DNA from: a virus
Lineage: Duplodnaviria; Heunggongvirae; Uroviricota; Caudoviricetes
Virus record (IMG/VR): IMGVR_UViG_3300026224_000011
Span: 1-28,437 of that record
Length of the DNA stretch: 28,437 nucleotides
Direction: 5' to 3' (one strand)
The position numbers were made by a program, and so were the translations under genes. The notes beneath the pieces were generated by a model that was not told where the DNA came from, did not search any database, and saw only the letters and a list, made by a program, of their open reading frames with translations. Shown piece after piece: positions 12,861 to 12,896 of the stretch; positions within the stretch are counted from its first letter, which is position 1, and every line of letters begins with the position of its first letter.

Positions 12861-12896
12861 TGGGTACTGCTGGGGGTGTTCAGCACCCCCAGCAGG
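12861..12896 (-). promoter_or_regulatory. late-operon dyad motif, copy B (12-bp perfect inverted repeat)
   Basis: ctgctgggggtg ttcag cacccccagcag; shares GGGTACTG..GGGTGTTCAGCACCC with 4837-4868; about 135 bp upstream of the holin ATG. Confidence 0.4.

Follow-up and report, generated by a model that had tools for sequence, protein, structure and literature searches.

A palindrome at a predicted late lysis promoter of a Mu-like prophage

A long perfect inverted repeat lies upstream of the lysis genes in a viral DNA stretch from IMG/VR (record IMGVR_UViG_3300026224_000011), and it raises the question of whether the repeat is read as DNA by a regulatory protein, acts as a folded RNA, or has no function of its own. 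A first-pass annotation had described it as a conserved dyad motif and had favored a protein-binding site or an RNA structure controlling the lysis genes, with a Mor/C-like gene as the activator. The window, by which we mean the whole 28,437-nt stretch analyzed, is a transposable prophage of the Mu-like kind, and all of its phage genes lie on the minus strand. Genes for a Mu-type transposase and a B-like ATPase are present along with GemA, a Mor-family gene, holins, and an endolysin. On the minus strand the order runs GemA, ORF112, Mor-family gene, ORF95, holin, holin, and endolysin, and continues with DUF1804, terminase, portal, F, G, protease, and major head. Both the prophage context and this gene order support a Mu-like promoter reading of the site. 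The palindrome and the genes around it are as follows.

12867-12895, minus strand: perfect 12-bp inverted repeat with a 5-nt spacer, at about -62 to -34 of the predicted promoter
12313-12726, minus strand: holin (Phage_holin_8), which opens the lysis cassette; a second holin and the endolysin come after it according to the RefSeq annotation of relatives
12914-13201, minus strand: 95-aa ORF (ORF95), between the activator gene and the promoter
13229-13696, minus strand: Mor/C-family activator of 155 aa, the proposed trans factor

An E. coli prophage about 95% identical to the window is carried by about 60 complete genomes, including that of EPEC E2348/69, in which the prophage disrupts eutC. The INPHARED phage collection held no close relative of the region, only distant holin matches. 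Homology to the prophage in E. coli genomes stops near window position 23703, and the remainder (about 23700-28437) matches nearly all E. coli genomes, many of them more than once, and may therefore be host DNA and/or an insertion sequence.

The palindrome and its surroundings

The arms CTGCTGGGGGTG and CACCCCCAGCAG, at 12867-12878 and 12884-12895, are complementary at 12/12 positions, as the annotation had it, and the full sequence reads CTGCTGGGGGTG-TTCAG-CACCCCCAGCAG. The pattern GGGGGTG-N0-12-CACCCCC matched once in the window and never in 100 shuffles. Folded as minus-strand RNA, the palindrome reached -25.7 kcal/mol (z -5.68), and none of 200 shuffles was equally stable. It begins 18 nt past the ORF95 stop, consistent with its annotated place downstream of the 12914-13201 gene, and it does lie upstream of the holin start, although the distance to the ATG is 141 nt and not about 135. 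The holin ATG at 12726 is preceded by an AGGAG Shine-Dalgarno sequence. Searched against Rfam 15 at the gathering score, neither strand of the entire window gave a match.

The annotation had further considered an intrinsic terminator unlikely, there being no T-run on either side. This is correct for the minus strand, where the tail is TACCCACCAC, but not for the plus strand, whose tail GTTGATTATC made the consensus scan call the site terminator-like; no plus-strand gene reads into it. The intrinsic terminator test found a G+C-rich hairpin but no U-tract, with UACCCACCAC as the minus-strand tail, and for the strand of the lysis genes the conclusion that this is not an intrinsic terminator stands.

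The 80-nt region was present in 58 of 5,426 E. coli genomes, but in none of the 5,426 at 100% identity over its full length. The perfect 12-bp form was therefore seen only in this window, and the long perfect palindrome appears to be a private feature of it. A host repeat of the REP-like kind was rejected on this low count and on the position of the copies examined, which lay between the Mor-family and holin genes.

A 16-bp box at fixed distance from a predicted -10

We collected homologues of the 155-aa Mor-family protein down to about 37% identity and compared their loci, with 10-kb flanks, from Trabulsiella, Xenorhabdus, Photorhabdus, Intestinirhabdus, Morganella, Buttiauxella, Lonepinella, and Serratia, adding loci from Salmonella and one 83%-identical relative (L numbers designate individual loci). 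Gene order was kept across them. Comparison with about 20 relatives defined the conserved unit as a 16-bp box, GCTGAAC(A/C)CCC(C/T)C(A/C)(G/A)C, at 12884-12869, which takes in the final base of the left arm, the whole loop, and the greater part of the right arm and is offset 4.5 bp downstream relative to the palindrome. The second copy of the motif that the annotation had implied, on the minus strand at 4863-4851 (GGTGCTGAACACC), is the sole other exact match in the window. Two copies thus exist, but the part common to them, GGGTGCTGAACACCC-YC-MR-CAGTACCC, is not the palindrome itself. Below, copy B is the lysis copy and copy A is the one in the gap that separates the G-like gene from the head protease/scaffold gene.

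12869-12884, minus strand: activator box GCTGAACACCCCCAGC (GCTGA-ACACCC-CCAGC) of copy B, predicted -51 to -36 with its center at -43.5; proposed operator
12846-12868, minus strand: C-rich 23-bp gap from the box to the -10, of the same length in every promoter compared
12840-12845, minus strand: predicted -10 hexamer TACCCT, its spacing fixed across relatives
4845-4860, minus strand: copy A box GCTGAACACCCTCCAC (GCTGA-ACACCC-TCCAC), putative analogue of Mu PI, before the head protease/scaffold gene
4816-4821, minus strand: predicted -10 hexamer CATCAT of copy A, 23 bp past the box, with the protease ATG (4808) 7 nt further on

In relatives whose Mor-family protein was 37-65% identical to that of the window, the same box stood before both the lysis genes and the protease gene. 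Carriers came from Salmonella, Trabulsiella, Xenorhabdus, Photorhabdus, Intestinirhabdus, Morganella, Buttiauxella, and Serratia, and Lonepinella (L131) had a degenerate box before the protease gene only. Upstream of the protease gene the box read GCTGAAC(C)CCC(T)CA(R)C, with the exception of the Serratia phages, which had GACGAACCCCATCATC at both the lysis and the protease sites. The conserved 16-mer has an asymmetric look overall, and in L125 and L128 it is a perfect dyad, GCTGA-ACCCCC-TCAGC. The promoter-proximal half-sites of the window are imperfect; CCAGC of copy B matches at 4/5 positions and TCCAC of copy A at 3/5.

Every box compared was followed by exactly 23 bp and then by a hexamer of the TAnnnT or CAnnAT type. 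The hexamers at this spacing were TACACT, TATACT, TATGCT, TACGCT, CACAAT, CAGAAT, CATCAT, TAATCT, GATAAT, TATTCT, and TACCCT, and in L142 TATTCT kept the distance despite a different gap sequence. Because both hexamers of the window are weak (TACCCT and CATCAT), their assignment rests on this fixed spacing across relatives. The -35 position of copy B reads AGTACC, with 2/6 matches to TTGACA, and a sigma-70 consensus scan called no promoter at the palindrome site, as would be expected of an activator-dependent promoter. The predicted transcription start is at about 12833, so that some 107 nt of 5' UTR would precede the holin ATG. Two other assignments were discarded. In Photorhabdus (L124), TACCCT 13 nt past the box was rejected as the -10 since TACACT holds the conserved 23-bp spacing, and an alternative sigma factor using GAAC as its -35 was rejected on the 32-nt distance from GAAC to the hexamer.

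We then scanned both strands of the 28-kb window with a weight matrix built from distant relatives only, the window and its close relatives being left out. Copy B ranked first (19.6 bits) and copy A second (16.8 bits), both intergenic and on the gene strand, and the third-best score was 12.0 bits. First-order resamples of the window gave a mean of 0.3 matches of at least 14 bits per window, and a chance match of the box was set aside. Boxes precede late operons at the holin (12884) and the protease gene (4860) in the window. For the complete E2348/69 prophage, the top three matches, of 19-21 bits, stand directly before the genes for holin, protease, and the baseplate protein GP46, and the sole additional match scored 14.9 bits at 27985. 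No palindrome accompanies this third copy, before GP46. Within a genome, the lysis and protease boxes were identical at 15.0/16 positions, compared with 12.8/16 between genomes, and none of 20,000 permutations reached the observed within-genome agreement, a result whose significance is overstated because several of the genomes are closely related. Such co-variation is expected of a cis-site read by a genome-specific trans factor. The sequence architecture, the conservation, the fixed spacing, the placement before late operons, and the co-variation within genomes are all features seen directly.

An exact search of IMG/VR with the 15-mer GGGTGCTGAACACCC returned 118 loci, most of them unrelated, with about 15 true relatives, all close. 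Among the contigs L002-L119 is an abundant, unrelated family of metagenomic viruses in which the 19-mer GGGGGTGTTCAGCACCCCC is followed by TTTTGTTT and a start codon. We rejected a relationship with this family; its GGGGGTGTTCAGCACCCCC sequence is an ordinary terminator on the opposite strand, and we took the match to be a coincidence amplified by near-identical contigs.

At the protease promoter, 6-7 nt separate the end of the predicted -10 from the ATG, both in the window and in 10/10 placeable relatives (L131 excepted), and no Shine-Dalgarno sequence precedes the protease ATG in the window or those ten relatives. This comparison covered window 4806-4821 (minus strand), L137 at 22259-22274 and 34175-34189, and the upstream regions of L121-L133 and L138. 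The GP46 promoter of E2348/69 is laid out in the same way (CAGACT-ggcggc-ATG). RefSeq start codons agree at the protease and GP46 genes, the protease start of E2348/69 being the same as that of the window. Given the distance from -10 to ATG, the mRNAs of the head and baseplate late operons may be leaderless or have leaders of 1 nt.

The gap between the G-like and protease genes also holds an A/T-rich palindrome, CGTTTTTAAAA-ggg-TTTTAAAAACG, at 4898-4928 with flanks to about 4945 (minus strand). It is kept in all relatives and resembles a stretch of Mu, at the same position, with an annotated strong gyrase cut site. It may be an analogue of the gyrase site, for which the alignment is only suggestive.

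Comparison with phage Mu and the candidate activator

In Mu, the lysis genes and gene I (protease) each stand behind a C-dependent late promoter, Plys and PI, respectively, and the C site is a 16-bp imperfect dyad centered at -43.5 in promoters that have a -10 but no -35 (PMC2582627). The Mor site of Mu Pm is a 16-bp element of two 5-bp inverted repeats with a G/C-rich hexanucleotide between them, and it is likewise centered at -43.5, taking the place of the -35 (PMC4390567). According to a preprint, Mor and C bind two neighboring major grooves immediately upstream of the -35 position and also contact the minor grooves on either side (10.1101/2025.05.02.651988), a mode of binding that may explain the partial conservation that we observed just outside the 16-mer. 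With its center at -43.5, a 16-bp element occupies -51 through -36, and 23 bp separate it from a -10 hexamer positioned at -12 to -7. Mu itself has ATTATGCCCCAATAAC-23 bp-TAAGAT at Pmom and TTCCTGTCACCATAAT-23 bp-TAGACT at Plys.

The copies in the window stand before the lysis and protease genes, as do Plys and PI, and this placement underlies the idea of late promoters. We consider it likely that the palindrome overlaps the upstream activator site of a late lysis promoter, the counterpart of Mu Plys, and its left arm (about -62 to -52) would then lie mostly outside the conserved promoter. The protein-binding site that the annotation had proposed for the lysis genes is thus the most likely function, but the predicted recognition unit is the 16-bp box and not the 12-bp palindrome. 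As in Mu C late promoters, a small Mor/C-family activator is encoded just upstream of the lysis genes. The box resembles Mu C sites in being a 16-bp imperfect dyad with a C-rich 6-bp center (ATTAT-GCCCCA-ATAAC in Mu Pmom), and it resembles Pmom and Plys in its 23 bp to the -10, the missing -35, and a center here predicted at -43.5. As with the Mu late promoters, separate copies stand before the lysis, head (protease I), and tail/baseplate operons (PMC2582627). The 5-bp inverted repeats around a G/C-rich 6-bp spacer also recall the two-repeat 16-bp element of Mu Pm, whose exact layout is found in the perfect boxes of L125 and L128 and imperfectly in the window.

The half-sites are GCTGA/TCAGC here and TTAT/ATAA in Mu, and comparison of GCTGAACACCCCCAGC with ATTATGCCCCAATAAC (Pmom) and TTCCTGTCACCATAAT (Plys) did not find the TTAT...ATAA half-sites that would mark a member of the Mu C regulon. 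The box appears to do the work of a C site without being a site for Mu C, and the unrelated half-site sequences imply that the activator would have a different DNA specificity. Unlike in Mu, ORF95 lies between the activator gene and the promoter, and the window has only one Mor/C paralogue. No mom-type promoter was seen in the window. Mu Pm drives the C gene, whereas the box here would drive late operons; the stretch immediately upstream of the operator is an A/T-rich alpha-CTD site in Pm and is G-rich in the window; and, unlike in Pm, the activator gene here has a near-consensus sigma-70 promoter (13753-13726). The operator consensus, G-C-T-G-A-A-C-n-C-C-n-T-C-A-n-C, is probably new, for a kind of promoter that is well known.

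The gene at 13229-13696 is the obvious partner of the site, as had been suggested. It is the sole Mor/C-family activator gene of the phage that carries the box and lies just upstream of the lysis genes. Its product matched Pfam PF08765 at 29.1 bits (cut-off 24.9) and PHROG 836, 'late transcriptional activator', at 9e-42. In BLASTP it found Mu C at 7e-6 and Mu Mor at 4e-5, a weak likeness (46% identity over 41 aa; 29% over 78 aa), and all three proteins have in common an FLGGxxFYIP linker and a helix-turn-helix region. Xenorhabdus, Photorhabdus, and Morganella have two Mor/C paralogues, and the gene of the window is the orthologue of the second, C-like one.

We infer that this protein binds the box, that transcription starts where predicted, and that it depends on the activator. 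Bound to the box centered at -43.5, a dimer (or dimer of dimers) would make up for the absent -35 contact and would bring in or activate sigma-70 RNA polymerase. The copy B promoter would in this way turn on the two holins and the endolysin late in the lytic cycle, and expression of the head operon from copy A (4860-4845) would be driven by this activator too.

If this assignment is right, the box, the 23 bp, and the -10 provide a late-promoter map for widespread Mu-like prophages of Enterobacterales, that of EPEC E2348/69 included. To our knowledge, no member of this prophage group has a characterized late regulatory circuit. The geometry of Mor/C promoters, with a 16-bp dyad at -43.5, would persist across activators that have diverged in DNA specificity, which would be of use in annotating late operons and in studying how the recognition code changes in a small family of activators. 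The mechanism itself is not of a new kind; only the operator sequence of this otherwise ordinary phage late promoter would be new.

Several features of the activator locus deserve mention in their own right. A canonical intrinsic terminator (GCCCCACC-ca-GGTGGGGC then TTTTTGATT) at 13236-13261 (minus strand) falls within the last 11 codons of the activator gene (KSPTQVGLFD), so that termination there would come at or before the stop codon and ORF95 would need read-through. Upstream of the gene, a terminator-like hairpin with a T-run at 13761-13788 (minus strand) is followed by the near-consensus sigma-70 promoter, TGTACA-16-TATAAT (minus strand). The -35 of this promoter lies within a CTGTACAG palindrome, and the TGTACA-16-TATAAT arrangement is found in the Salmonella relative too. 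This promoter looks independent of an activator. In two-paralogue relatives, at L123 9911, L124 9901, L127 9907, and L129 9907, the box variant ACTGAACCCCTTCAAC, followed by 23 bp and AATACT, precedes the second Mor/C paralogue and is a candidate middle promoter, an analogue of Pm. No box of the ACTGAACCCCTTCAAC type occurs in the window, which has one paralogue and, instead, an unrelated 112-aa ORF after GemA (13796-14134, PHROG 5882).

The hairpin beyond the box

The chances seem to us about even that the extension of the palindrome beyond the box is functionless, a by-product of a mosaic junction beside a C-rich box that a single C-to-T change made perfect in the window. Upstream sequence of the window type occurs in 23 of the 58 E. 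coli genomes that have the region, at no more than 97.5% identity over the 80 nt, and the four of these that were examined read CTGCCGGGGGTG, which gives a C.A mismatch and -21.0 kcal/mol. In the other 35, homology is lost at about 12889, within the left arm, and an unrelated 92-aa ORF takes the place of ORF95, which is thus a swappable module. Most of the left arm therefore varies even among 95%-identical prophages, and it is wholly missing in distant relatives and at the third copy. Against a functionless extension, hairpins recur at the same junction in several lineages, and GGGT precedes the box in both window copies, forming a small GGGTG/CACCC dyad that the operator explanation does not account for.

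The recurrence of hairpins also speaks for an added, non-exclusive role, which we regard as doubtful. The stem-loop would form the 3' end of the 'middle' transcript from upstream (Mor-family gene and ORF95), either stopping this transcript or protecting its end, and would prevent expression of the holin through read-through until the activator has built up. Stable hairpins of differing sequence are found at the junction. The stem has 12 bp in the window type and 7+4 bp in other genomes. The 35 E. coli genomes of the E2348/69 type carry CACCCCGC-cgcc-GCGGGGTG, whose end is the first base of the box and which is lengthened to 13 bp in L148, and in Xenorhabdus and Photorhabdus CAGCAGGC-gactg-GCCTGCTG overlaps the GCTG of the box. 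In Morganella (L129) a hairpin with a T-run lies just upstream, and in Mu ACCGGCA-tcc-TGCCGGT followed by TAT abuts the Plys box upstream. The Mu hairpin beside the Plys box is presumably the terminator of the Mu middle transcript; our literature search found no statement of a mapped one among the accessible papers. In Mu as in the group of the window, a G+C-rich hairpin stands where the preceding transcription unit ends and either lies immediately upstream of the box or overlaps its left edge. The hairpins differ in that T-rich sequence follows those of Mu and Morganella and none follows that of the window, which engulfs the operator.

Folding energies point the same way, with Plys-type segments at a mean of about -15 kcal/mol and PI-type segments at about -8, and no hairpin at the third copy; a hairpin of the junction type is missing from the protease-type and baseplate-type promoters. 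On the other side, the window, the E2348/69 type, Xenorhabdus, and Photorhabdus all lack a U-tract, so that efficient intrinsic termination is not expected; relatives from Trabulsiella, Intestinirhabdus, Buttiauxella, and Salmonella have no comparable hairpin; and the canonical terminator at the end of the Mor-family gene is already in place.

A combined proposal, which we hold to be rather improbable, is that the lysis copy is dual-coded, as RNA hairpin and as DNA operator, and that the head and baseplate late promoters give leaderless mRNAs. In read-through RNA the hairpin would end or insulate the middle transcript and keep the holin silent, and the same DNA would later serve as the operator; lineages would repeatedly have rebuilt a hairpin at this junction from different sequences.

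Very unlikely, finally, is a leader hairpin in the lysis mRNA through which translation, stability, or antitermination of the lysis genes would be regulated, since the predicted start lies downstream of the hairpin, which would then be absent from the late lysis mRNA and present only in read-through RNA from the Mor/ORF95 unit. The RNA structure that the annotation had offered as an alternative is for this reason not retained. The hairpin is very stable on the transcribed strand, and copies A and B differ at stem positions 6 and 8 on both sides with pairing kept. This covariation was rejected as RNA evidence because close relatives have variants that do not pair and distant relatives lack the left arm. 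In relatives, position 6 of copy A is A, T, or C opposite T, and distant relatives keep the sequence and not the pairing. The hairpin of copy A does not stand out from shuffled sequence (z -1.3), no hairpin is present at the third copy (z +0.7), and the lack of an Rfam match adds to this.

Under the preferred reading of the site as an activator-dependent late promoter, the predicted lysis leader has two further features. A perfect TTGACA lies at 12779-12774 (minus strand), with no matching -10 at 16-18 bp, and at 12774-12822 (minus strand) the leader holds a palindrome, GCAAAAGGCTTTTG(T)GC, flanked by GGCAC...GTGCC.
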